Source: a virus
Length of the DNA: 38,129 nt
Virus record (IMG/VR): IMGVR_UViG_3300015369_000076
Span: 1-38,129 of that record
Reading direction: 5' to 3' (one strand)
Below are positions 623 through 38,129 of this stretch, one piece after another; position 1 is the first letter of the stretch; each line of letters starts with the position of its first letter. Both the position numbers and the translations under genes were made by a program. The notes beneath the pieces were generated by a model. That model ran no database searches. It was not told the origin of the DNA and saw only the letters and a list, made by a program, of their open reading frames with translations.

Positions 623-2128
623 ATGGCATCACCACAGTATTATATCGACGCCGATGGAGTCAAGAGGATCCGTGAGAAGGTGGATGAGGCGCTCGCTCCC
701 CTTGACGCATCGATAAAGGCGAATGGGACCGCGATAGCGGAGCTTCAGGAAAGTGCGTCCTCCCAGGGGGAAGAAATCTCGGCATTGCAGGAAAAGGTCA
801 GTTCCAATACGGGGGCAATCGAACAGAACGCTGCGGATATAGAGAACAACTCGGCTTCCATAAAGCAGAATGCGGCTGACATAGCCTCCAATAAGGATGC
901 AATTGCGCAGAATACCGCTGACATCGAAAGCAATTCGCAGTCGATAGCGACCAACGCATCCAACATCGCATCCAATGCCGCGGCAATCGAGCAGAATGCT
1001 ACAGACATTTCCGGCCTTAAGACGGATGTGGCTGCAAATACATCCAATATCGCGTCCAATGCCTCGGCGATTGAACAGAATTCTTCTGACATTGCAAGCA
1101 ACAAGGACAGTATTGATGCGAATTCGGCTCTTATAGCGGCGAATACTGCGGCTATTGCGGCTAATACGACGGATATAGCAAGCAACAAGGAAAGCATAGA
1201 ACAGAATGCCTCCGACATTTCAGATCTCAAGCTCGGCGTGGCTACAAACGCTTCTGACATTTCGGATCTCAAGACCAGTGTGGCTGCCAACGCTTCTGAC
1301 ATCTCCAGTCTCAAGACTGATGTGGCTACAAACGCTTCCGACATCTCCAGTCTCAAGACTGATGTGGCTGCGAACACCACGGCCATAGCGGCCAATGTTA
1401 CAGACATAGCATCGAATAAGGCCGCCATAGAGCAGAACGCCACGGATATCGCAAGCAACAAGGAGAGCATTGGCACACTTAGTACCAAGCTCGACACCGT
1501 GGAGGAGGGGGCGCAGGTCAACGTGTTGGAGACCGTCAAGGTCAACGGGGCCGCCCTGACCGTCACGGATAAGGCCGTGGACGTGACCGTGGAGAGCGGA
1601 AGCGCCGAAGGCACCCTTTCGGTCAACGGTACGGACGTGGCCGTGAAGGGGTTGCAGGCAGCCGCCTACAGGGAAGTCACCGACGACGAAGTGGCTTCCG
1701 AACAGGAAGGGGAAGCGTTGGTGAGCACCACGGCCCTCGGGAAGACTGTCAAGGCCATAGAGGATAAGATAGATGATCTGGACGTCGCCCAGCTGCAGGA
1801 GGACGTATCGGACGGGCAGATGGCCCTCAGTGCGAAGGTGGCCGCCCTTGACATGCAGGTCGAGGACCTTACTGAGAAGGCGTCAGATACCAGGGCGCTT
1901 GATCTCGCCGAACAGAACCTTGAGATACAGATATCCGAGAGAGTCCAGGCGGCTGCGATGGAGGCCAATCTGGAGGATGCTCAGTATCAGACTAACCTTA
2001 ATACGGAGAACATAGCCGCCCTTGGCAGCGATATCGCCAATGTCATGCCTGTACTCGCAAGGAAGATAGCTGAACTTAGTGCGAGGGTGGAGGACCTTGA
2101 ATACGCAATTGAGCAATTAACATCATAA
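623..2128 (+). CDS. Tail fibre shaft protein, long trimeric-coiled-coil-like heptad array
   Basis: ATG at 623, 501 aa. Residues about 20-292 form 39 consecutive heptads (NxxxIxx or LKTxVAx), followed by a beta-rich C-terminal part (VKVNGAALTVTDKAVDVTV). The gene sits between fibre genes. Confidence 0.8.
   Translation: MASPQYYIDADGVKRIREKVDEALAPLDASIKANGTAIAELQESASSQGEEISALQEKVSSNTGAIEQNAADIENNSASIKQNAADIASNKDAIAQNTADIESNSQSIATNASNIASNAAAIEQNATDISGLKTDVAANTSNIASNASAIEQNSSDIASNKDSIDANSALIAANTAAIAANTTDIASNKESIEQNASDISDLKLGVATNASDISDLKTSVAANASDISSLKTDVATNASDISSLKTDVAANTTAIAANVTDIASNKAAIEQNATDIASNKESIGTLSTKLDTVEEGAQVNVLETVKVNGAALTVTDKAVDVTVESGSAEGTLSVNGTDVAVKGLQAAAYREVTDDEVASEQEGEALVSTTALGKTVKAIEDKIDDLDVAQLQEDVSDGQMALSAKVAALDMQVEDLTEKASDTRALDLAEQNLEIQISERVQAAAMEANLEDAQYQTNLNTENIAALGSDIANVMPVLARKIAELSARVEDLEYAIEQLTS
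1205..1372 (+). repeat. Four tandem 42-bp units (two heptads each, NASDISD-LKTxVAx) inside the shaft gene
   Basis: Near-identical 42-nt units read directly in the sequence (aatgcctccgacatttcagatctcaag... x4). Confidence 0.8.
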
Positions 2129-2447: not shown

Positions 2448-3731
2448 ATGGCGACGAATAACACGAAATACTATTCTCTCCGTTTTGCGACCAAGGATGA
2501 ATATCTTGCATCCAAGGCCAGCGGGAAAATCTATACCACTCTCATGGACAGCACCTACGTCTCAAGGGCGGTGGTGAGCTACATCGAAGAGATCGGGCGT
2601 TCTGTCACTGACGCTATCAACATCATTGCGCCCATCTCGCGAGTACAGGTAGGCGACTGCGTCCTCTATAATGCAGATGACGGCAAGCATTACGCCTTGA
2701 AGGGCCATGAGGAATGGGACGCCACGAAGCTTGGTGGATTCAGCTACAATGCCACCGACTGGGCGGAAGCGGGCTACACCTTGCTCGGATGGCTCTACAA
2801 GAGGGAAGGCAAGGAGGGAAGGATTCTGTCCAACGCCGACTTCGGGGCTCTCCAGTATGACAGCGAGAATACATCCGATAGCAAGGTATCGTCCTATACT
2901 TCGATGACCAGGGCGGACGGGCAGTCCATCAACTGCCAGGACTCCAAGAGCACGAGGGTCTGCATCTCCCTCGACTGGACGGACATCGCCTACACTTCGA
3001 ACAGCTATTACAACTGGCCCCTCCTGAGGGACAACTGGGATACCATCATGACCGCCTACGGACAAGGCACGGACACCGACGGATGGGTGGCCGTGGTCGA
3101 CAAGTTCGCGGAGGCGACCTCGGGAACGGCCCTCTGTTATGTGGCCTACAAGATAGAGGGAGGAAAGCTCACCATAGCCATGACAGGGAACGCCTTCTCC
3201 GCCGGGGACGAGACCATCACCGTGACCTACTCCGACGGGGAGACCACCGTGGACATCACGCCCCACCTCATCTACCCCGCGGACTGGGACTACTCTTTCG
3301 ATAAGTGGGCTAAGGGCGAAGCCCTGGCCGAATTCCCCGCGACCAGCGGTGTGCTGACCGACATGGACGGGAAGCGCAACACCACCTCCCAGTGCATTGC
3401 GAGCACGAAGGCGGTCGCACCGCTGAAGGTCATAGCATATGCCATAAAGGACGTTGACGGCAACGCCATCCCCGGCGTGCAGGCGGGAGACTGGTGGATC
3501 CCCTCGGCTGGGGAATGGGCGGAATACCTGTTTGCTGCGAAGAGGCTTTATGAGAAGGGCTTCAGGCCGGCAAACGCATGGATGAACACCAGCTCTCAGA
3601 ACGGAAGCTTGAATTGGAAAGCGCCCATACTTTTTGCGACCAGTTCAGCCGCGTCATCGAACATGTACTGGGGCAATAAGAATCACCGCAACTGCAGGGC
3701 ACGCGGTATCGCCGCCTTTCACATTGATTAA
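2448..3731 (+). CDS. DGR variable (target) protein, putative receptor-binding tail protein with a C-type-lectin/DUF1566-like C-terminus
   Basis: ATG at 2448 lies 2 nt after the previous stop codon. The C-terminus GDWWIPSAGEWAEY...NAWMNTSS...NMYWGNKNHRNCRARGIAA resembles DUF1566/FGE-type DGR targets. The VR occupies the last codons before the stop. Confidence 0.85.
   Translation: MATNNTKYYSLRFATKDEYLASKASGKIYTTLMDSTYVSRAVVSYIEEIGRSVTDAINIIAPISRVQVGDCVLYNADDGKHYALKGHEEWDATKLGGFSYNATDWAEAGYTLLGWLYKREGKEGRILSNADFGALQYDSENTSDSKVSSYTSMTRADGQSINCQDSKSTRVCISLDWTDIAYTSNSYYNWPLLRDNWDTIMTAYGQGTDTDGWVAVVDKFAEATSGTALCYVAYKIEGGKLTIAMTGNAFSAGDETITVTYSDGETTVDITPHLIYPADWDYSFDKWAKGEALAEFPATSGVLTDMDGKRNTTSQCIASTKAVAPLKVIAYAIKDVDGNAIPGVQAGDWWIPSAGEWAEYLFAAKRLYEKGFRPANAWMNTSSQNGSLNWKAPILFATSSAASSNMYWGNKNHRNCRARGIAAFHID
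3649..3716 (+). repeat. DGR variable repeat (VR)
   Basis: Aligns without gaps to 4365-4432 (offset 716). There are 8 mismatches within 67 nt, all opposite TR adenines, plus one more A-to-C at the 3' edge. Confidence 0.85.
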
Positions 3732-3750
3732 TCCTTAATCCTTCAACCTT

Positions 3751-3772
3751 GGGCGGGGCCCCGTCCCCGCCC
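3751..3772 (+). promoter_or_regulatory. GC-rich hairpin downstream of VR (candidate DGR target-recognition hairpin/cruciform)
   Basis: gggcgggg-ccccgt-ccccgccc gives an 8-bp all-G/C stem and a 6-nt loop, 35 nt after the VR end. No T-run follows, so it is not a typical intrinsic terminator. Confidence 0.6.
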
Positions 3773-3784
3773 CATCAGTCAGAC

Positions 3785-4315
3785 ATGCCGAAGAGACAGC
3801 AGAGCATATCATTCGCAGATCAGGAGAACTATCCTCTTGAGGGGAAAGTGACCGTGCAGACGATTGCCAGGAGCAACAAGATAGATACAACCGCTTTTGC
3901 TCCTCCCACTTCTGTACTGGATGCGCTCCCTGTCTACAGGGTAGTCAAGAACCTCAGGGATAACTACGTCAAGAATGTCTACGACCATCTGAAGGTCAAG
4001 TACCGGAGGACCGTGGGCGACAGGCTCCTTGACCTGCTCTTCGACAGTGTGGGCTATCTGGCAATTATCGGCACGAGTACCGACTTAGGGGATAAGCTGA
4101 GGGCTACCGGGGCATTCCTTCGCACTTACGCACAGGTGCAGGACTGCATCGGCTTCCTCTGCTCCGACCCGGACATCGGGCTCCCGCTCAAGAAAGCTGC
4201 GACACTTTATAGACAAATCGGAAATATAGAAGCGCAAATGCAGGGCTATAAGAACTCTCTAAGGGTCAGGGCGTCGGAGGCTGAGGCGGCCAATGGCGGA
4301 GAAACTCGTCAGTGA
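3785..4315 (+). CDS. avd: Avd-like accessory variability determinant (small basic helical protein)
   Basis: Located between target and TR. The helical, basic sequence (LPVYRVVKNLRDNYVKNVYDHLKVKYRRTVGDRLLDLLFDS...) resembles the four-helix-bundle Avd family. The first ATG is 3785; the TTG at 3749 lies inside the hairpin. Confidence 0.65.
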   Translation: MPKRQQSISFADQENYPLEGKVTVQTIARSNKIDTTAFAPPTSVLDALPVYRVVKNLRDNYVKNVYDHLKVKYRRTVGDRLLDLLFDSVGYLAIIGTSTDLGDKLRATGAFLRTYAQVQDCIGFLCSDPDIGLPLKKAATLYRQIGNIEAQMQGYKNSLRVRASEAEAANGGETRQ

Positions 4316-4364
4316 AAGGGAGCCCTCCACTCATTTAGTGGTTTCAACGGGCTTTGAAATACTT

Positions 4365-4432
4365 CCGCGACATCGAACATGAACTGGAACAATAAGAATA
4401 ACAACAACTACAGGGCACGCGGTATCGCCGCA
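4365..4432 (+). repeat. DGR template repeat (TR), adenine-rich, AAY-codon design
   Basis: ccgcgacatcgaacatgaactggaacaataagaataacaacaactacagggcacgcggtatcgccgc(a). I counted 25 adenines and 8 AAY codons in the VR reading frame. The 3' GC-rich block is identical to the VR. Confidence 0.85.
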
Positions 4433-5647
4433 TCTCGCTGCAACGAGAGTAGTCCTTTGCGCTTCTCCATTTCCGACATCGACATGCTCAAGAGTGCCAT
4501 GGCGTGCCAGAAAAACAAGACATCATCGCTGGATGAGATAAGGTTCGAGATGAAGGGAGGCACGGCGGTTCTGGGCATTGTCGATGACATGAACGCCGGA
4601 ACATATTCATTTATCCCTGCCTCGGCCTTCGTTCTCAGGAGGCCGGTCCCCAGGGAAGTCCTCGCGGCCGCCTACAGGGATCGTGTGAGGCAGACCTGGG
4701 AGATGGAGCGCATGGAGAGAATTCTCGAAGGCATTCTCCCGACGAATGTCACTGCGAACAGAAAAGGAGGGGGATGCCTCTATGCCACGAACCGGGTATT
4801 CGAGCTCTTCGATGCATACCCCGACGGCTGGGTTGCTAAGTTCGACCTGCAGGGCTTCTTCATGAGCGTCGACAAGAACATCCTTCTGAAGCTCGCACTA
4901 GATGCGATAGACCTTCACTATGAAGGAGAGGATAAGGAGGCACTAGCCTACTATGTCAAGGACGAACTGGGGCATAGGGTCCAGAATGACTGCAAGCTCC
5001 GTTGCTCCCCGAAGGAATGGAGGAGGCTGCCCGCCCATAAGAGCATGTTCACCCAGCCCGAAGGGAGGGGGCTTCCCATCGGCAACCTTCCCAGCCAGGT
5101 GCTGGTGCAATTCCTCCTGAAGGAGATAGTGGACTTCATCGAAGGCTACGGTCTCGGGGTGGTGGACTTTGCGGATGACTTCGTAACCGTGGGGGACAAA
5201 GGTACGATACTCAGGATGATGGGCGAACTCAGGAGATGGCTTGCGAGCGAGCTCCACCTGACTCTCCATCCTGCGAAATTCTATATGCAGCCGGTACGAC
5301 ACGGAGTGACCTTCGGGGGCTACAGGTTGAGTCCGGGAAGGAGAATCATCGGAAAGCGGACTGAAAGGAGAGCGCTGGCTAAGGCGCATTGGATTTGTTC
5401 GCATTCTGATACCCTGCCACCGGAGAAGGCCGCCGCCACTCTGAATTCATACTTGGGGAGAGCAAGATACTGTGAAGCGGGAAAGATGGTGAAGGGAATT
5501 AGGGAAGAACTGGAGGGGTCGGAGCTTCAGAATATTCTCTGGTATGATTGGAGGCGGTGTATCGTAAGAGTAAGGACGAGAGAGCGCTTGAAAAGGACAT
5601 GCGCCAGGGAAGTGATAAGAATGAGAAAACAATACAATAGAATATGA
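4379..5647 (+). CDS. DGR reverse transcriptase (true start possibly ATG 4484; the 5' extension overlaps the TR)
   Basis: RT motifs read in the translation: GFFMSVDKN, LPIGNLPSQVLVQFLL (the I/LGxxxSQ hallmark of DGR RTs), VVDFADDFV (xADD catalytic motif) and LHPAKFYMQPVRHGVTFGGY. Confidence 0.9.
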   Translation: MNWNNKNNNNYRARGIAASRCNESSPLRFSISDIDMLKSAMACQKNKTSSLDEIRFEMKGGTAVLGIVDDMNAGTYSFIPASAFVLRRPVPREVLAAAYRDRVRQTWEMERMERILEGILPTNVTANRKGGGCLYATNRVFELFDAYPDGWVAKFDLQGFFMSVDKNILLKLALDAIDLHYEGEDKEALAYYVKDELGHRVQNDCKLRCSPKEWRRLPAHKSMFTQPEGRGLPIGNLPSQVLVQFLLKEIVDFIEGYGLGVVDFADDFVTVGDKGTILRMMGELRRWLASELHLTLHPAKFYMQPVRHGVTFGGYRLSPGRRIIGKRTERRALAKAHWICSHSDTLPPEKAAATLNSYLGRARYCEAGKMVKGIREELEGSELQNILWYDWRRCIVRVRTRERLKRTCAREVIRMRKQYNRI

Positions 5648-6114
5648 CGACGGTCAAGATAGCACCCCTCGCAGCAAAGACTGTGACAGTGGCGCTCTCC
5701 GTGGCGTGGTTCATGGAGAGTCTGCAGTCCATGCTCCCATGGCTCATCGCCTGCGTCCCCCTCATCCTCCTGGACCTCCGGTGGGGCGTCAAGGCGGCAC
5801 GACACCGCCACGAGCTCGTGAGGGTATCCAAGGGGATACGCGCCACGGTGGGCAAGGCGTTCGAGTACGTCTGCTGGGTGTCCGTGTCAGTACTCCTCGC
5901 CGAGACGTTCGGCAAGGAATGGATAGAGCCTCTGGTGCTGGCCCTCGTCATCCTCAACGAGTTTTCCTCCATCGTGGGGAACTACATGGAGACGAAGGGC
6001 TACAGGCTGAACAGGTCGGAGATCTGGAAGGCGCTAGCCAAGAAGGGGAGCGACGCCGTGAGCCTCGACCTCGACACGAGCGAACTCATAGAGAAGGAGA
6101 AGGATGGAGAATGA
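5644..6114 (+). CDS. Holin-like membrane protein
   Basis: Three hydrophobic segments, the LNEFSSIVGNYMETKG motif resembling the Phage_holin_4_1 family, and a position immediately upstream of the endolysin. Its ATG overlaps the RT stop (ATGA). Confidence 0.6.
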   Translation: MTTVKIAPLAAKTVTVALSVAWFMESLQSMLPWLIACVPLILLDLRWGVKAARHRHELVRVSKGIRATVGKAFEYVCWVSVSVLLAETFGKEWIEPLVLALVILNEFSSIVGNYMETKGYRLNRSEIWKALAKKGSDAVSLDLDTSELIEKEKDGE

Positions 6115-6224: not shown

Positions 6225-6836
6225 ATGATAGCTGACAAGGTAAAGATATACATCGACGCCGGCCACGGCATACACACGGCCGGCAAACGCTCCCCCGACG
6301 GGCTGCTCCGCGAGGGAGTGTGGAACCGCAAGGCGGCACGGCTCCTCGTGGCTCGGCTGGAAGACTCCGCCATACCCGTGACGTGGATAAACGACTACGA
6401 CACCGACGACCCCTTGTGGTACCGGTGCCGAAAGATAAACGAGCTGGCGTCCGAGTGGCCGTACGGCTACCAGAACTGCCTCGCACTTTCCGTCCACTGC
6501 AACGCACACCTTGACAACAGGTGGACCGACGCCCACGGCTGGGAGGTGTTCACATACACGTACGCCTCGCCCCTCTCTACGGAGGCGGCGGTCCTCATGT
6601 CGTCCGAGGCGCTCTCTGCAGGGCTGACCGTCCGGAGGACCTATCCGGACCGGTATTACAAGACGGCCAACTACGCCATGGTGAGGGACACGATCTGCCC
6701 GGCGATCCTCGTGGAGAACGCCTTCATGACGAACCGTGCCGACTGCGAGATGCTCCTCTCCGACGAGGGCACGGAGAAGCTCGTGGACGTGATGTACAGG
6801 GGTCTGAAGGACTACTGCCAGCTATACGGAAGATGA
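6225..6836 (+). CDS. N-acetylmuramoyl-L-alanine amidase (Amidase_3) endolysin
   Basis: KIYIDAGHG...SVHCNA...AILVENAFMTNRADCEML matches the Amidase_3 zinc-amidase pattern. Confidence 0.85.
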   Translation: MIADKVKIYIDAGHGIHTAGKRSPDGLLREGVWNRKAARLLVARLEDSAIPVTWINDYDTDDPLWYRCRKINELASEWPYGYQNCLALSVHCNAHLDNRWTDAHGWEVFTYTYASPLSTEAAVLMSSEALSAGLTVRRTYPDRYYKTANYAMVRDTICPAILVENAFMTNRADCEMLLSDEGTEKLVDVMYRGLKDYCQLYGR

Positions 6837-8680: not shown

Positions 8681-8711
8681 CCTTCCTCGTCGTGAGACAA
8701 GGGAGGTTTTT
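8681..8711 (+). terminator. Terminator-like hairpin (GUGA loop) plus T-run, abutting the integrase stop codon
   Basis: ccttcct...gtc-gtga-gac...agggagg followed by ttttt. It is oriented for + strand transcripts, convergent with int. Confidence 0.5.
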
Positions 8712-9801
8712 ACCACTCCGGCTTCCGTTTCCCCTTTACGAAGTCCAGTGTCCATCGCATGCCCTTGTCCGCCTTGGATTCGTCCGGATCTACATATACC
8801 ATGGTGACGGCCCTCGAAGTGTCCGAGTGCCCCAGCATCTGGGCTATGACCTCCAGGGGGACGCCTACCTGGGACGCCAGTGTGGCCACTGAGTGGCGGG
8901 CCTCGTAGGTCGTGTGCCCGATGTCCTTCTTCATCTGCCTGCAGGCATTGATGTACCAGTTCCTGTAGGAGGACGTCCCCTCGCAGAACGAGAACAGCCT
9001 CTCGGTGCCTCTCCACTTCCTCATCAGGTACGCCGCCTCCGGTTCTACCTTGACCGAGTACCTCTTGCCTGTCTTGCTCCGGACGTAGGTGATGCGGCCG
9101 TTTTTGTAGTCCCCTGGCCGGAGGTTGTAAAGGTCAATCGCATTGATACCTCGGAGACAGAATATCAGCACCCAGACATCCCTCCACTTGCCGTGCATGC
9201 TGTTGAATATCCGCCGGACCTCCCTGATTGGCAGCGCCCTCTTCTCGGTCTCCTCGTTCTTTATCTTTATCTTGCTGAACGGATAGCAGTCCGTCAGGCC
9301 GGTGTCCCTGGCATGGTTGAACACGGCCCTCATGTTGCGGAGGTGGATGTTTACCGTATTGATAGTGTTCCCGCGGCCCTCCAGCCAGCTCCTGAACTTG
9401 GATATGTAGGGCGCATCGATTTCGAAGAAGTCCCTCTGGGCTATCATGGGATCGAACCGATGAAGGAGCTTGCTTGTACGGACGTATGTCTCCACGGTCC
9501 TCGGCTTGTTCCTTGACTGGGCGAATTCTTCATAGGCCTTGAGGAACGCTCCCCTGACTACCTTTTCGACTCCCATCAGGGAGCGAATCTTGCCGGTAAG
9601 CGTATCATTGTCGATGGCCTTCAGCCTGCCTGCCAGGGCGAGGTCCGCAAGGTAGGTGTTGACTCGGGACGCCATCATCTGTACCGCCGGATCTGTCGCA
9701 GGCCGGCCGGTGGAGACGAAGATATACTTGCGGTTGTGGCGGAGTCTCAGGAATGCGCTGCTGCACCCCTTCTTGGTGAATATCGTGACTGTCTGTTTCA
9801 T
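8710..9801 (-). CDS. int: Tyrosine recombinase / phage integrase
   Basis: C-terminal catalytic pattern (ARHSVATLASQVGVPLEVIAQMLGHSDTSRAVTMVY) and N-terminus MKQTVTIFTKKG...LRLRHNRKYIFVSTG, typical of Bacteroidota-type phage integrases. The start at 9801 is chosen because the longer ORF (to 9945) reads through the arm repeats. Confidence 0.9.
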   Translation of the reverse strand: MKQTVTIFTKKGCSSAFLRLRHNRKYIFVSTGRPATDPAVQMMASRVNTYLADLALAGRLKAIDNDTLTGKIRSLMGVEKVVRGAFLKAYEEFAQSRNKPRTVETYVRTSKLLHRFDPMIAQRDFFEIDAPYISKFRSWLEGRGNTINTVNIHLRNMRAVFNHARDTGLTDCYPFSKIKIKNEETEKRALPIREVRRIFNSMHGKWRDVWVLIFCLRGINAIDLYNLRPGDYKNGRITYVRSKTGKRYSVKVEPEAAYLMRKWRGTERLFSFCEGTSSYRNWYINACRQMKKDIGHTTYEARHSVATLASQVGVPLEVIAQMLGHSDTSRAVTMVYVDPDESKADKGMRWTLDFVKGKRKPEW

Positions 9802-9809
9802 GCCGTTTT

Positions 9810-9830
9810 GGTTTAACTTTGGTTTAACTT
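9810..9830. repeat. attP arm-type repeat pair (GGTTTAACTT x2)
   Basis: Direct tandem copies at 9810-9819 and 9821-9830. Confidence 0.6.
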
Positions 9831-9875
9831 TCGGCCGGTCCGGGGCGTAACTCCCTGACATGCCGGCACGGCCTT

Positions 9876-9897
9876 GGTTTAACTTTTGGTTTAACTT
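9876..9897. repeat. attP arm-type repeat pair (GGTTTAACTT x2)
   Basis: Direct copies at 9876-9885 and 9888-9897. Confidence 0.6.
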
Positions 9898-10000
9898 TTT
9901 TCTCCGAAAAGCCCCAAAACGCTCCAAAATGTCCCAAAATGACACATGAAGAGCGTCAAGGATAAGCAGTATACCCTTGACGTAACAGATTGATATTCAG

Positions 10001-10061
10001 CGGAAAGACAGGGATTCGAACCCTGGAGCCGCATACGCGACTACCGGTTTTCGAGACCGGT
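10001..10061 (-). other. attP core: 3' ~61 nt of a tRNA-Ser(CGA) gene (anticodon arm, long variable arm, T arm, acceptor 3' strand, G73)
   Basis: The reverse complement reads CCGGT-CTCGAAA-ACCGG / TAGTCGCGTATGCGGCTC / CAGGG-TTCGAAT-CCCTG / TCTTTCC-G. No D arm or 5' acceptor strand is present, so it is a fragment rather than a gene. Confidence 0.7.
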
Positions 10062-10117
10062 TAATCTTCCGTATAATCCCTTAGTGGCTAGTCTGTTACG
10101 GAGGGAACTTTTCTCTT

Positions 10118-10151: not shown

Positions 10152-10487
10152 TCAGGCATTCGGGATCTTCTTAAGGAGCTCCTGGATTGTCGCATAATAC
10201 TCCGAGTTCTGCCTCCGGAGCGATTCGACCATGTCCTGAAGGAGTCTTATGTAGGCATCCTGCGATACGGCCGTATCCGCCAGGGGCGGAATGTTCGTCG
10301 TGCCGTCCGTCAGGGCGGACACATCCCATCCCATGTTGTTGTTGACGAGTTTATGAAGGTTCACCGGGTCGGGCTTCGTCCGGCCTGCCACCCAGCTTGA
10401 GACTGACGCCTTGGAGATCCCAAGGTAGTTGCTGATGTCGACTTGACGCAAATTATTATCCGCCAAGAAGTTAAGAATTTTAGACAT
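10152..10487 (-). CDS. XRE/CI-like HTH transcriptional repressor
   Basis: N-terminal HTH_3 pattern LRQVDISNYLGISKASVSSWVAGRTKP. Divergent from the early operon and adjacent to int/attP. Confidence 0.8.
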   Translation of the reverse strand: MSKILNFLADNNLRQVDISNYLGISKASVSSWVAGRTKPDPVNLHKLVNNNMGWDVSALTDGTTNIPPLADTAVSQDAYIRLLQDMVESLRRQNSEYYATIQELLKKIPNA

Positions 10488-32974: not shown

Positions 32975-33310
32975 ATGTCACGCGAGACGTTCTACACTCT
33001 CCGCTATGGCGAGTTCTGGGAGGCGATGGCGATGTACCGGATGGAGAAGGAGGCGGACCGGAGGCACATAGGGGAGCTGGTAAGGGGAGCCACCATAAGG
33101 CTCTTCAACCTTCAGGTCCAGAAGGAGCACAAGTTCAAGGATCCATCCAAGTTCTGGCCGATGCCGTGGGATCCCGTGAACGAGGCAGAAGAGGTTGCAA
33201 GGACATTCAGCAGGCTCACGCCAGAGGAGCTTGACAGGAAAGCGAGAGAGTTTCTGGCAACATTGGAAAACAAGGAAAGCGATGGCTCAGCAGGCAACAT
33301 CCAAGCTTAA
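32975..33310 (+). CDS. gpT-like extension ORF, probably expressed as a G-T fusion (32595..32906 / 32906..33310) by -1 frameshift
   Basis: The ORF is in the -1 frame relative to 32595..32933 and contiguous with it. Confidence 0.6.
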   Translation: MSRETFYTLRYGEFWEAMAMYRMEKEADRRHIGELVRGATIRLFNLQVQKEHKFKDPSKFWPMPWDPVNEAEEVARTFSRLTPEELDRKAREFLATLENKESDGSAGNIQA

Positions 33311-35621
33311 GATACCGGTAGAGGTCGATTCGTCCAAGGTCAAGTCTGGGATGAATTCAGCGGCGAGCAGTGTTGAGACAGCATCGCAGAAGATTACCGC
33401 GTCTACCAGGAAGGCGGCCAACAGTTCTCAGTCGGCGTTCTCCGGGATGGCCAAGAGCATCCAGAGCGCCTTTTCGAAGACTCTGATAGCAGTCTATGCC
33501 GTTATCAAGGCATTTTCTGTATTCAAGGAATCATTCAAGGTCATAACCGAGTTCGAGCAGGCGAATGCCGACCTTTCCACCATCCTTGGAAAGTCGACGT
33601 ATGCCATGCAGGATCTTACCGATTCTGCGAGGGACCTCGGTAGGACCACGGAATATACTGCATCCCAGGTCACCCAGCTGCAGACCGAACTTGCCAAGCT
33701 GGGATTCGACCAGAAGGAGATAATGGGAATGCAGAAGGCGGTTCTCCAGTTTTCGACCGCCGTCGGCGCGGAGCTGCCTGAGGCGGCGGCCCTCGCCGGT
33801 GCGTCTCTCCGCATGTTCGGTCTGGAAGCGAATGACGCAGAGGACGCCTTGGGGACCATGGCAGTGGCCACTAACAAGAGCGCCCTCAGTTTTACATATC
33901 TTCAGACTGCCATGTCTATCGTGGGGCCCGTCGCCAAGACGTTCGGGTTCTCCCTCAAGGACACTGTCACCCTTCTGGGGACATTGGCCAATTCGGGATT
34001 CGACGCCTCGAGTGCGGCTACGGCCACGAGGAACATTCTTCTCAATCTAGCGGATTCGTCGGGCAAGCTCGCCCAGTCTCTCGGAAAGCCTGTCAAGACT
34101 TTTCCTGAACTTATCGAGGGGCTGAAGAAGCTCCGTGACCAGGGGGTGGATCTTGCATCGGCTCTGGAGATGACAGACAAAAGGAGCGTAAGCGCCTTTA
34201 CCGCCTTTCTTGATGGGGCCGATGCCTCCAATGCCCTGAGGGATGCCCTTCAGGATGTGGATGGCGAGCTGGAGAGAATATCACGTGACAGGCTCAATAC
34301 TGTAGAGGGCTCAGTGAAGCTCCTTCAGTCTGCATGGCAGGACCTCATCCTTACCTTCAGTAATTCCAAGGGGGTTATCAAGGACACCATCGATACCCTT
34401 ACCAATGCCCTTATCAGTTTGCAGCAGCTTGTTGCCGGTGACAAGGGCTCCGGGGCGTCAATAGCCGACAGGGCCAAGAAGAACGCCGAGTGGTATCATA
34501 ACTATTTCCAGACTGATGCTGACATGTACAAGGCCCTTACGGAGGACATACAGAAGCAGCAGCACCAGGTCGATGTCCTTACGAAGACTGCAGGTACGGG
34601 ATTTACCCTTGACCGTGCGGCCAAGAAGGCGAGGAAGGAGCTGCCGGAGGCCCAGGCGTATCTGGCCGTCCTTCAGGAGACCCAGAAGATCCTTCAGGGA
34701 GTGTCCAAGGCTGATGCATCTGCGGCTGGCGCTCTGGGGGATACTGATACTGTTACGACTACCGGCCTGCCGACCCTGTCAAGCCCCAAGTCAAGTACGG
34801 TGAAGCAGCTATCGGCGGAGGAACTTAGCCGCGAGAGCATCAAGATGATCAGTACCCTTGACGAACTCGAGGCTGCATGGAACGCCGGAACTCTGGTATG
34901 GTCCGACTACATATCAAAGCTCTCCCAGCTCGCAGGTGCGAGTGCGGCTGAGGCTGCCGAGATTGCGAAGGCGGACAAGGAGGTTGCGGACGCGGACAGG
35001 GAGATGTACGAGCAGTTCCGTTCCATGAACGGCCTTGACGCCATAAACGAGGCTCTGGACGAGAACGGTCTGAACTATGAGAGATGGGCCCTGCAGGTCG
35101 AGAAGTCTGTTGAGCAGTTCCAGAAGGCTCAGGAGAAAGCCAAAGAGCTCGCATCCGAGTTCAATACTGCAGTTGCCTCAGGTGTGTCCAGCGCGGTCCA
35201 GGAGATGACTGACTCCCTGTTCGGGCTCCAGGAGTTCAACAGCGGGAAGATCTTCCAGGCGCTGCTTGACCCTTTGGCCGACATGGCGATAAAGGAGGGA
35301 GAGCTTCTGGTCGCGTCCGGTGTCGGTGTAGAGGCCATAAAGAGCGCTTTGGAGAGCCTTAACGGATGGGCGGCTGTTACGGCCGGTACGGCCCTGATAG
35401 CCCTTGGAGCGGCCGTTAAAAGCGGTCTGGCGGCTTTGGCGTCGACGTCGAGTTCCGCCGCGTCCAATACGACCGCGGTCGCAAGTTCCAACACGACTAC
35501 TACGACCACTTCGATGGAGAGGGAGCTGACCGTGAATGTCACGGGAACTCTCCAGGCTAAGGGGTCGACACTGATAACAGTTCTCAACAACGAGAAGAAA
35601 CGTGCTGAATACACTAACTGA
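33282..35621 (+). CDS. Tape measure protein (779 aa)
   Basis: Long Ala/Leu-rich helical protein after G/GT. The ATG at 33282 is preferred over the track start at 33195, which overlaps the T ORF. Confidence 0.85.
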   Translation: MAQQATSKLKIPVEVDSSKVKSGMNSAASSVETASQKITASTRKAANSSQSAFSGMAKSIQSAFSKTLIAVYAVIKAFSVFKESFKVITEFEQANADLSTILGKSTYAMQDLTDSARDLGRTTEYTASQVTQLQTELAKLGFDQKEIMGMQKAVLQFSTAVGAELPEAAALAGASLRMFGLEANDAEDALGTMAVATNKSALSFTYLQTAMSIVGPVAKTFGFSLKDTVTLLGTLANSGFDASSAATATRNILLNLADSSGKLAQSLGKPVKTFPELIEGLKKLRDQGVDLASALEMTDKRSVSAFTAFLDGADASNALRDALQDVDGELERISRDRLNTVEGSVKLLQSAWQDLILTFSNSKGVIKDTIDTLTNALISLQQLVAGDKGSGASIADRAKKNAEWYHNYFQTDADMYKALTEDIQKQQHQVDVLTKTAGTGFTLDRAAKKARKELPEAQAYLAVLQETQKILQGVSKADASAAGALGDTDTVTTTGLPTLSSPKSSTVKQLSAEELSRESIKMISTLDELEAAWNAGTLVWSDYISKLSQLAGASAAEAAEIAKADKEVADADREMYEQFRSMNGLDAINEALDENGLNYERWALQVEKSVEQFQKAQEKAKELASEFNTAVASGVSSAVQEMTDSLFGLQEFNSGKIFQALLDPLADMAIKEGELLVASGVGVEAIKSALESLNGWAAVTAGTALIALGAAVKSGLAALASTSSSAASNTTAVASSNTTTTTTSMERELTVNVTGTLQAKGSTLITVLNNEKKRAEYTN

Positions 35622-37377: not shown

Positions 37378-38129
37378 ATGGCAAAGCCTAAATATACTGA
37401 ACCGAAGAAGCGGAGGATAGGCAACGACCTCTCCTTTGCCTGGAGCATAACGTACAAGGACAGCGGCGACCCCTTCGACCTTGAGGGCCTCACCTTGAAG
37501 CTTACCCTGTGTCACGGCGACTATGAGAAGAGGATTCCCGTGACGGACTTCGACGTGGAGGAGAACGTCATCAGCTGGAAGTGGGCGGCCGCCGACCAGC
37601 CTGTCTGCGGAAACTGGTACGCCCTTCTGGAGAGCGTCGACGACGTGGGCGAGGCTCATACGGTCGACATGTGCATGATAATATGCCTCGTTCCCCACAC
37701 CTATATGGAGACTGACGCGACTGATACGTCGGTGGATGTGGAGACTGTGGAGCTTAGTTCCGAACTGCAGGAGATCATGAGGGGCTATTCGGCCTACGAG
37801 ATCGCCGTGCAGCAAGGCTATGAGGGGACCGAAGAGGAGTGGATAGAGTCGCTTCACGCCAAGTGCCTCTGGGAGAGGGGTGGCGGAAACAATTCCCTCG
37901 TCGCAAAGAACAGCAACGCCGAAGCCCTGGGGGCTTTCGCCCTTGCAAGGGGGTACATCCCCCTGCTGCCCGTGACCCAGCAGCCCTACGGGACAATCGA
38001 GGCTTCGGGGGTCGCATCCAGGGCGGAAGGCTACGTCAACAACGGGGCGTCGATAAAGGCCGAGGGTGACGGGTCGAGTGCGGGCGGATGGACGGGGACC
38101 GGTTTCATCCAGGCATCGGGCGCCGGGTC
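37378..38129 (+). CDS. Tail fibre protein, 5' part (continues at nt 142 after the terminal repeat; the whole gene is 37378..38129 joined to 142..592)
   Basis: Hand translation from ATG 37378 is open to the window end. It contains the fibre motif SAYEIAVQQGYEGTEEEWIESL. Confidence 0.75.
   Translation, partial: MAKPKYTEPKKRRIGNDLSFAWSITYKDSGDPFDLEGLTLKLTLCHGDYEKRIPVTDFDVEENVISWKWAAADQPVCGNWYALLESVDDVGEAHTVDMCMIICLVPHTYMETDATDTSVDVETVELSSELQEIMRGYSAYEIAVQQGYEGTEEEWIESLHAKCLWERGGGNNSLVAKNSNAEALGAFALARGYIPLLPVTQQPYGTIEASGVASRAEGYVNNGASIKAEGDGSSAGGWTGTGFIQASGAG
37989..38129. repeat. Terminal direct repeat copy B (identical to 1..141)
   Basis: Base-for-base identity with nt 1-141. Confidence 0.9.

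Follow-up and report, generated by a model that had tools for sequence, protein, structure and literature searches.

The window considered here is the whole 38,129-nucleotide (nt) stretch of the IMG/VR virus record IMGVR_UViG_3300015369_000076, and the element under study is a cassette of three open reading frames (ORFs) and associated repeats that closes the tail-gene module of a phage. All parts of the cassette lie on the + strand in the order target gene, GC hairpin, accessory gene, template repeat (TR) and reverse transcriptase (RT) gene (Table 1). This is the mtd-avd-TR-brt-like order of the diversity-generating retroelement (DGR) of Bordetella phage BPP-1, as the first-pass annotation had pointed out, and the variable repeat (VR) occupies, as also claimed there, the extreme 3' end of an ORF of the fibre module. 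Taken together, these elements very probably constitute a complete DGR with the BPP-1 architecture (target-avd-TR-RT), carried by a circular temperate tailed phage of ~38 kb and operating by the mechanism set out below.

Table 1. Features of the DGR cassette and of the surrounding phage genome, given as positions in the window.
Feature	Position	Strand	Remarks
DGR target gene	2448-3731	+	427 amino acids (aa); last gene of the tail/fibre module
VR	3649-3715	+	67 nt, 22 codons; 13 nt before the target stop codon; four codons follow
Putative initiation of mutagenic homing (IMH)-like 3' end of VR (AGGGCACGCGGTATCGCCGC)	3695-3715	+	From the alignment; assigned by analogy to BPP-1 IMH/IMH*
Candidate GC hairpin/cruciform, GGGCGGGG/CCCCGT/CCCCGCCC	3751-3772	+	8-bp all-GC stem, 6-nt loop
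Accessory gene, probable divergent Avd	3785-4315	+	176 aa, isoelectric point (pI) 9.2; between target and TR
TR-bracketing duplex, upstream arm (cPRT-Stop-like)	4218-4238	+	In the 3' part of avd, 126 nt before TR
TR	4365-4431	+	67 nt, 25 adenines, eight AAY (Asn) codons in the VR frame
Small stem-loop UCUCG/CUGCAA/CGAGA	4433-4448	+	Spacer just past TR; in minimum free energy (MFE) and centroid folds
TR-bracketing duplex, downstream arm	4456-4476	+	Starts 25 nt past the TR end
DGR-type RT gene	4484-5647	+	387 aa from ATG 4484; RVT_1, PHROG 1423
Holin (Phage_holin_4_1)	5644-6114	+	Start overlaps the RT stop
Amidase_3 endolysin	6225-6836	+	
Integrase	8710-9945	-	
tRNA-Ser(CGA), complete	10000-10080	-	Between the integrase and helix-turn-helix (HTH) genes
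HTH repressor-like gene	10152-10487	-	
Tape measure gene	33195-35621	+	
400-aa tail-module gene	~37379 to 592	+	Across the circular junction
501-aa coiled-coil fibre gene	623-2128	+	

The repeat pair and the elements around it

VR and TR, which are held at a fixed offset of 716 nt, differ at 8 of their 67 positions, and each of these differences sets a TR adenine against a T, G or C of the VR, with zero mismatches at non-adenine positions. A ninth mismatch, from A to C, lies just past the repeat (3716 on the VR side, 4432 on the TR side). The adenine-specific relation between an adenine-rich TR and the VR that had been proposed for this locus is borne out by the alignment, in which 8 of 8 mismatches over 67 nt, or 9 of 9 over 68 nt, fall on TR adenines; the hypergeometric probability that all nine would fall on the 26 adenines of the 68 positions is 6e-5. 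All eight mismatches inside the repeat occupy codon position 1 or 2 of the target ORF. The TR translated in the VR frame reads S-A-T-S-N-M-N-W-N-N-K-N-N-N-N-Y-R-A-R-G-I-A-A and offers 12-14 variable codons, eight of them AAY, from which a repertoire of ~1e12-1e13 protein variants is computed. When every adenine of the TR is replaced by N, the resulting pattern is found at two sites only in the 38-kb window (0 mismatches) and at none in 100 shuffles. A second VR elsewhere in the window was rejected, since this adenine-masked pattern occurs only at the VR and the TR, and a longer TR hidden upstream was likewise rejected, given the lack of similarity at the same offset and a stop codon in the VR frame at 4355. 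VR and TR share a GC-rich final stretch of 21 nt without a single difference, adenines included, and divergence sets in from 3716/4432 on. This segment would be IMH-like by analogy with the IMH/IMH* of BPP-1, which served as the model for the assignment (PMC5758913), and divergence immediately after it is as expected for an IMH/IMH* pair.

The hairpin between the target and accessory ORFs, whose existence had been noted in the first-pass annotation, begins 34-35 nt past the VR end and gives a DNA fold of -12.7 kcal/mol (z -2.55). In phage DGRs such hairpins have a GC stem of 7-10 bp and a GRNA tetraloop and are placed 4-34 bp from the VR (PMC3240598), so that the stem found here fits and its distance from the VR is borderline. 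An intrinsic terminator was rejected as an explanation for this structure, as the terminator scan makes no call and no T-run follows the stem. Canonical GNRA-loop hairpins are present past the VR in three closely related loci, L005 (4575-4592, GGTGGGC-GGAA-GCCCACC), L007 (~2336-2353, GGACAAC-GGAA-GTTGTCC) and L013 (~3299-3314, TCCCCC-GTAA-GGGGGA).

The TR is bracketed by a 21-nt inverted repeat, with 19 of 21 positions paired, one arm of which lies within the accessory gene and the other in the spacer between TR and RT. Folding of 4200-4500 recovers the duplex in both the MFE and the centroid structure (z -2.71). RNA duplexfold, applied to the flanks of the TR, did not discriminate and an ungapped complementarity score was used instead, which reached a z of 3.8 against shuffles. 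In BPP-1, a duplex of avd with the spacer after the TR, termed cPRT Stop, has been observed by cryo-electron microscopy of the ribonucleoprotein, and predictions place it in 207 of 278 DGRs of the Avd type (Handa et al. 2024, bioRxiv 10.1101/2023.10.23.563531). On the grounds of sequence and predicted folding, the duplex 4218-4238/4456-4476 would correspond to cPRT Stop. Duplexes of 12-14 bp, different in sequence, occupy equivalent positions in loci L005/6, L008 and L011 (arms 159-162 nt before and 11-22 nt after the TR), and the ungapped complementarity score gave no support for such duplexes across the wider RT clade. The small stem-loop just past the TR may be the equivalent, in this locus, of the stem-loops that the BPP-1 DGR RNA has in its spacer.

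The three proteins of the cassette

The RT carries the motifs GLPIGNLPSQ, of the I/LGxxxSQ type, and DFADDF, and the columns of the IGxxxSQ motif are invariant or nearly so across 20 RT homologues. It matches RVT_1 weakly and PHROG 1423 at 1e-44, and has 781 homologues. Its sole match below an E-value of 1e-10 among all Protein Data Bank (PDB) chains is 8ub7_A (2.7e-11), an entry that Foldseek describes as the Bordetella DGR ribonucleoprotein, and at E<=0.01 no PDB chain of a group II intron, retron or Abi RT was matched. A BLASTP comparison with the Brt of the BPP-1 GenBank record aligns residues 35-377 at 5e-16. The earlier description of a DGR-type RT with LPIGNLPSQ and xADD motifs agrees with these results, the latter motif being present as FADD. 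The genomic context points in the same direction. Among the 80 most similar RT loci in IMG/VR, 75 contain an adenine-specific repeat pair, and most have the target-accessory-TR-RT order, so that not only motif but also context marks this RT clade as one of DGRs. Motif, structure-database match and clade context together support the assignment of the RT to the DGR type.

The claim that the RT gene follows the TR holds for the order of the two elements and had to be corrected for their boundary, as the longest RT ORF (4379-5647) has its 5' end in the TR. The RT frame is open from 4358, immediately after the stop at 4355, and its first ATG, at 4379, lies inside the TR. ATG 4484 is the start that matches homologues devoid of an N-terminal extension and is the likely start of the protein. 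Overlap between the TR and an annotated RT ORF is a known arrangement, that of DiGReF group 3 (PMC3521204). The present locus resembles that group in that its longest RT ORF begins in the TR, but differs from it in that the TR is only partly contained in the ORF and in that ATG 4484 is homologous to the start of extension-free RTs. Of the 75 related loci over which repeat-pair statistics were compiled, 44 have an RT frame without any stop along the entire TR, and an ATG precedes the TR in 33 of these, so the RT proteins called there bear a TR-encoded N-terminal extension (for example ...QYSAxNAWNxNNNGNxNNNNK...). The RT frame coincides with the VR frame in 39 of the 75, compared with the one third expected by chance.

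The accessory protein retrieved only itself in a word-indexed search of 5.8e9 proteins, and a HMMER scan of 1.8e9 representatives recovered 13 other proteins, nine of which (133-168 aa) align to its residues 44-166. Four of these nine distant homologues match PF22296 (bAvd) over its full length, the best at 1.1e-6 and 29.5 bits against a cut-off of 40 bits. A single-sequence AlphaFold2 (AF2) model, with a mean predicted local distance difference test score (pLDDT) of 66, has a disordered N-terminus followed by helices at 49-72, 77-97, 101-127 and 135-171, and folds residues 44-171 into a four-helix bundle. The best PDB matches of this model in Foldseek are 2gsc and 2rld, of the S23/IVP family, the Avd chains of 8ub7, 8ub8 and 8ube, and 4dwl, the Bordetella Avd, with target-normalised template-modelling (TM) scores of 0.7-0.8 and E-values of only 0.03-0.7. 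A profile of the accessory family compared with PDB sequences gave chance-level COMM-domain matches only. Avd genes are poorly conserved and their products have a mean pI of 9.5 (PMC5758913). Because of the structural matches, the sub-threshold PF22296 matches of its homologues, its basic charge and the position of its gene, the accessory protein is likely to be a very divergent Avd, although the scores involved are weak. It had been described as a small, basic, helical, Avd-like product; basic and helical it is, whereas small fits less well a protein of 176 aa with an extension of ~43 aa ahead of the core if ATG 3785 is the start. With a start at one of the GTG codons 22 and 24, the extension would shrink to ~20 aa. 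Residues 1-43 (3785-3913) are predicted to be disordered and have no counterpart in any homologue.

For the target protein, too, the word-indexed search of 5.8e9 proteins yielded a self match only, and a profile of its family found no match among PDB sequences. Five homologues, with 22-27% identity, are encoded at the loci of the closest RT relatives (L005-L008 and L011), in the same position as here, after tail/fibre proteins of 921-979 aa. The family shares the N-terminal ~125 aa and a C-terminal domain with the signature PG..W(W/F)(I/L)(P/G)(S/T)..(E/D), and the window protein has an extra insertion of ~55 aa relative to its homologues. A chain of profiles connects its C-terminal ~130 aa with Lcl_C (DUF1566), of which they would be a divergent relative. 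The C-terminal profile of the family matches 23 further DGR targets in related loci, and 32 of 65 target C-termini from related loci match Pfam Lcl_C (DUF1566, PF07603). Nine related targets tested singly against Lcl_C all scored under the 34.9-bit cut-off, those matched by the family profile at 4e-8 to 3e-4, and one of the five family members matches Lcl_C at 0.0034. In hhalign, the C-terminus of the target family aligns to Lcl_C-type DGR targets with 96% probability (E 3.4e-9) over the first half of the domain only (residues ~303-359).

Phage genome and occurrence in other assemblies

The last 141 nt of the window (37989-38129) are identical to the first 141 (1-141). The genome thus closes into a circle of 37,988 bp, and the earlier view of the window is corrected to that of a circular genome with a 141-nt terminal overlap. 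The tail module forms one unbroken run on the + strand, with the tape measure gene followed by genes for proteins of 583, 400, 501 (the fibre) and 101 aa and, finally, the target, whose putative tail-fibre role is assigned from gene position. The fibre gene contains at 1214-1369 a 42-nt tandem repeat of 3.7 copies with 82% matches, and it encodes repeated ...NASDISxLKTxVA... units. The DGR cassette constitutes the end of the tail module, and holin, amidase and integrase genes come next, in agreement with the proposal of a temperate phage whose lysis genes directly follow the cassette. The tRNA-Ser(CGA) gene beside the integrase could be connected with the attachment site.

A phage lineage without cultured relatives is indicated by the large terminase, which shares no more than 34% identity with any GenBank phage. 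Megablast of the cassette against GenBank phages gave no match. Rfam recognised no family over the whole window. Shine-Dalgarno sequences are missing from most genes, and one close RT homologue comes from a Prevotella metagenome-assembled genome; both observations weakly suggest a Bacteroidota host.

The phage was found in three other assemblies, one of them the same JGI contig (100% identical), another 99.99% and another 99.77% identical. The Logan assembly SRR350590 differs from the window over 10 kb by one A/C single-nucleotide polymorphism at 3774, 2 nt past the hairpin. The contig L002 (JGI 3300005362) differs over 8.5 kb only in a 390-nt patch of the holin gene (5643-6033), with 19 substitutions, 11 of them synonymous, and a 1-nt insertion; 12 of the 19 set an A of L002 against a T, C or G of the window. 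Off-target mutagenesis by the DGR was rejected as the origin of this patch, as 7 of the 19 substitutions involve no adenine and 11 are synonymous, and the patch looks like the product of recombination, the better fit, or of an assembly problem. Searches for the target protein in metagenome and genome collections gave no further copies of it, and those with the RT alone in the viral collection gave no further copies of the phage.

Proposed mechanism, alternatives and significance

According to the preferred reading, a transcript would be produced that extends from the 3' part of avd through the TR and the spacer, and this RNA would fold so that the 21-bp duplex 4218-4238/4456-4476 encloses the TR. 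The RT-Avd complex would bind the TR-containing RNA and the RT would copy the TR to cDNA with misincorporation opposite adenines. The cDNA would then replace the VR of the target gene, guided by the IMH-like GC-rich end and the hairpin 3751-3772. In this way, 12-14 codons would be varied in the divergent Lcl_C/C-type-lectin-like domain of the last protein of the tail module, and the likely outcome would be a changed receptor specificity.

Several observations weigh against this reading. The VR and the target protein are identical in all three other assemblies, the 90%-identity cluster of the target is a single sequence among ~15 billion proteins, and the adenine-masked VR pattern retrieved nothing from viral, metagenome and genome collections. 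The perfect adenine-tolerant run is short, 67-69 nt here versus a median of 99 nt in the 75 related loci, and the TR of relatives spans 30-40 codons compared with a VR of ~22 codons in the window. The hairpin loop, CCCCGT, has 6 nt and falls outside the GRNA tetraloop consensus, and in BPP-1 enlargement of the loop by 2 nt nearly abolished homing (PMC3240598). The catalytic box of the RT is FADD and not YxDD. Neither the accessory protein nor the target has a match in Pfam, NCBIfam, PHROGs, PADLOC or PDB sequences. The link of the accessory protein to Avd lies below curated thresholds, and hhalign of its family with BPP-1 Avd is weak (E 0.0019, probability 14%). For the target, AF2 applied to residues 285-427 as a single sequence gave a pLDDT of 31, an unusable model in which the lectin fold was not reproduced, and the window protein itself has no match to Lcl_C. 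The half-domain alignment, this missing match and the failed model make a C-type-lectin-like fold of the target C-terminus likely rather than demonstrated; the DUF1566/C-type-lectin scaffold proposed in the first-pass annotation is sustained by the chain of profiles, though not by a direct match or by structure prediction.

The bearing of these points differs among the alternative explanations. One of these would assign the RT to the group II introns, retrons, Abi systems or DRT defence and treat the 67-nt repeat as a duplication unconnected with it; this idea is so improbable that we regard it as already refuted. The matches that could speak for it are a weak one in NCBIfam (group II intron RT model, 49.5 bits, 3e-13) and weak generic RT/DRT matches in PADLOC (DRT 7e-9), together with the name 'retron-type reverse transcriptase' given by JGI to some RT homologues. 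However, such scores fall far short of the thresholds set for these families (300 bits in the case of group II), among solved structures the Bordetella DGR RT is matched best and no other RT class appears, the RT has the DGR-specific IGxxxSQ motif, the mismatches fall exclusively on TR adenines, and the repeat pairs recur at 75 of the 80 nearest RT loci. A more serious proposal, although still an unlikely one, is that the DGR is structurally complete but now inactive or barely active, with the VR frozen in one successful variant. The invariance of the VR, which extends to L002 with its 20-difference holin patch, can be read in this sense, and the non-consensus hairpin loop and the FADD motif disfavour activity as judged from sequence. 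Nevertheless, outside that one patch the assemblies are 99.77-100% identical, so that almost no evolutionary time is sampled and a consensus hides minor variants; VR invariance among such near-identical assemblies does not count against activity. The xADD type of motif is also found in an RT of the same clade, P0013 (YADD). Moreover, all three ORFs are intact and no non-adenine mismatch is present in the 67 nt of the repeat, where a decaying pair would gather them, features that argue in favour of recent activity.

Considerably less probable is that the DGR is real but diversifies something other than a receptor-binding tail protein, such as a decoration, lysis-associated or host-surface-modifying protein. 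The target lacks an annotated homologue and its connection with tail fibres comes from gene position, which leaves room for this idea; against it, the target closes the unbroken run of tail genes that starts at the tape measure, its closest homologues are equally placed, and mtd has the same arrangement in BPP-1. We would give about as little credence to a joint reading in which the cassette combines a new receptor-binding scaffold (427 aa, five distant homologues, a lectin-like domain cut to a 22-codon variable patch) with altered rules of target recognition and cDNA termination (a 6-nt non-GRNA loop, and a stop duplex that lies 126-162 nt ahead of the TR/VR homology boundary). If the altered termination rules were true, the cDNA would be far longer than the segment transferred.

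Returning to the preferred reading, every sequence-level DGR feature that could be tested appears to be present in this element save the loop consensus of the hairpin. The element is a divergent DGR of the same class as that of BPP-1 and does not represent a new kind of system. Both share gene order and strand, a VR at the 3' end of a tail-module gene, adenine-specific differences, an 8-bp GC hairpin past the VR, a basic four-helix accessory protein, an RNA duplex of the 3' part of avd with the post-TR spacer, and an RT that aligns to Brt over nearly its full length. They differ in that the RT, only 23% identical to Brt, has ~30 aa inserted between motifs and FADD in place of YMDD; the TR has 67 nt instead of 134 nt; the loop is CCCCGT instead of GAAA; and the upstream arm of the duplex is separated from the TR by 126 nt instead of ~10 nt. 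In addition, the accessory protein is longer at its N-terminus by up to ~43 residues and shows no pairwise similarity with the Avd of BPP-1, and the target is unrelated in sequence to Mtd. The element is also close to the DGRs of uncultured, mostly gut-associated phages with Lcl_C/DUF1566 targets, with which it shares RTs 28-41% identical, the target-avd-TR-RT order and a TR immediately upstream of, or overlapping, the RT ORF. Unlike those, the target of the window has no Lcl_C match of its own and only five distant whole-protein homologues, and its VR of ~22 codons ends in ...NCRARGIAAFHID where ...VRxV is usual.

DGRs are common in phage tail modules, and large surveys list tens of thousands of them. 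The present one is a compact and fully parsed example from a phage lineage without cultured relatives. Since both Avd and target are missed by standard domain libraries, annotation based on Pfam alone under-detects the accessory and target genes of such elements. The cassette further provides a natural variant, in its hairpin loop and in the placement of its TR-bracketing duplex, to be set against the rules derived from BPP-1. If it is active, the phage can search ~1e12-1e13 variants of a tail-tip protein, and another lineage would be added to those that adapt their host range by means of a DGR.

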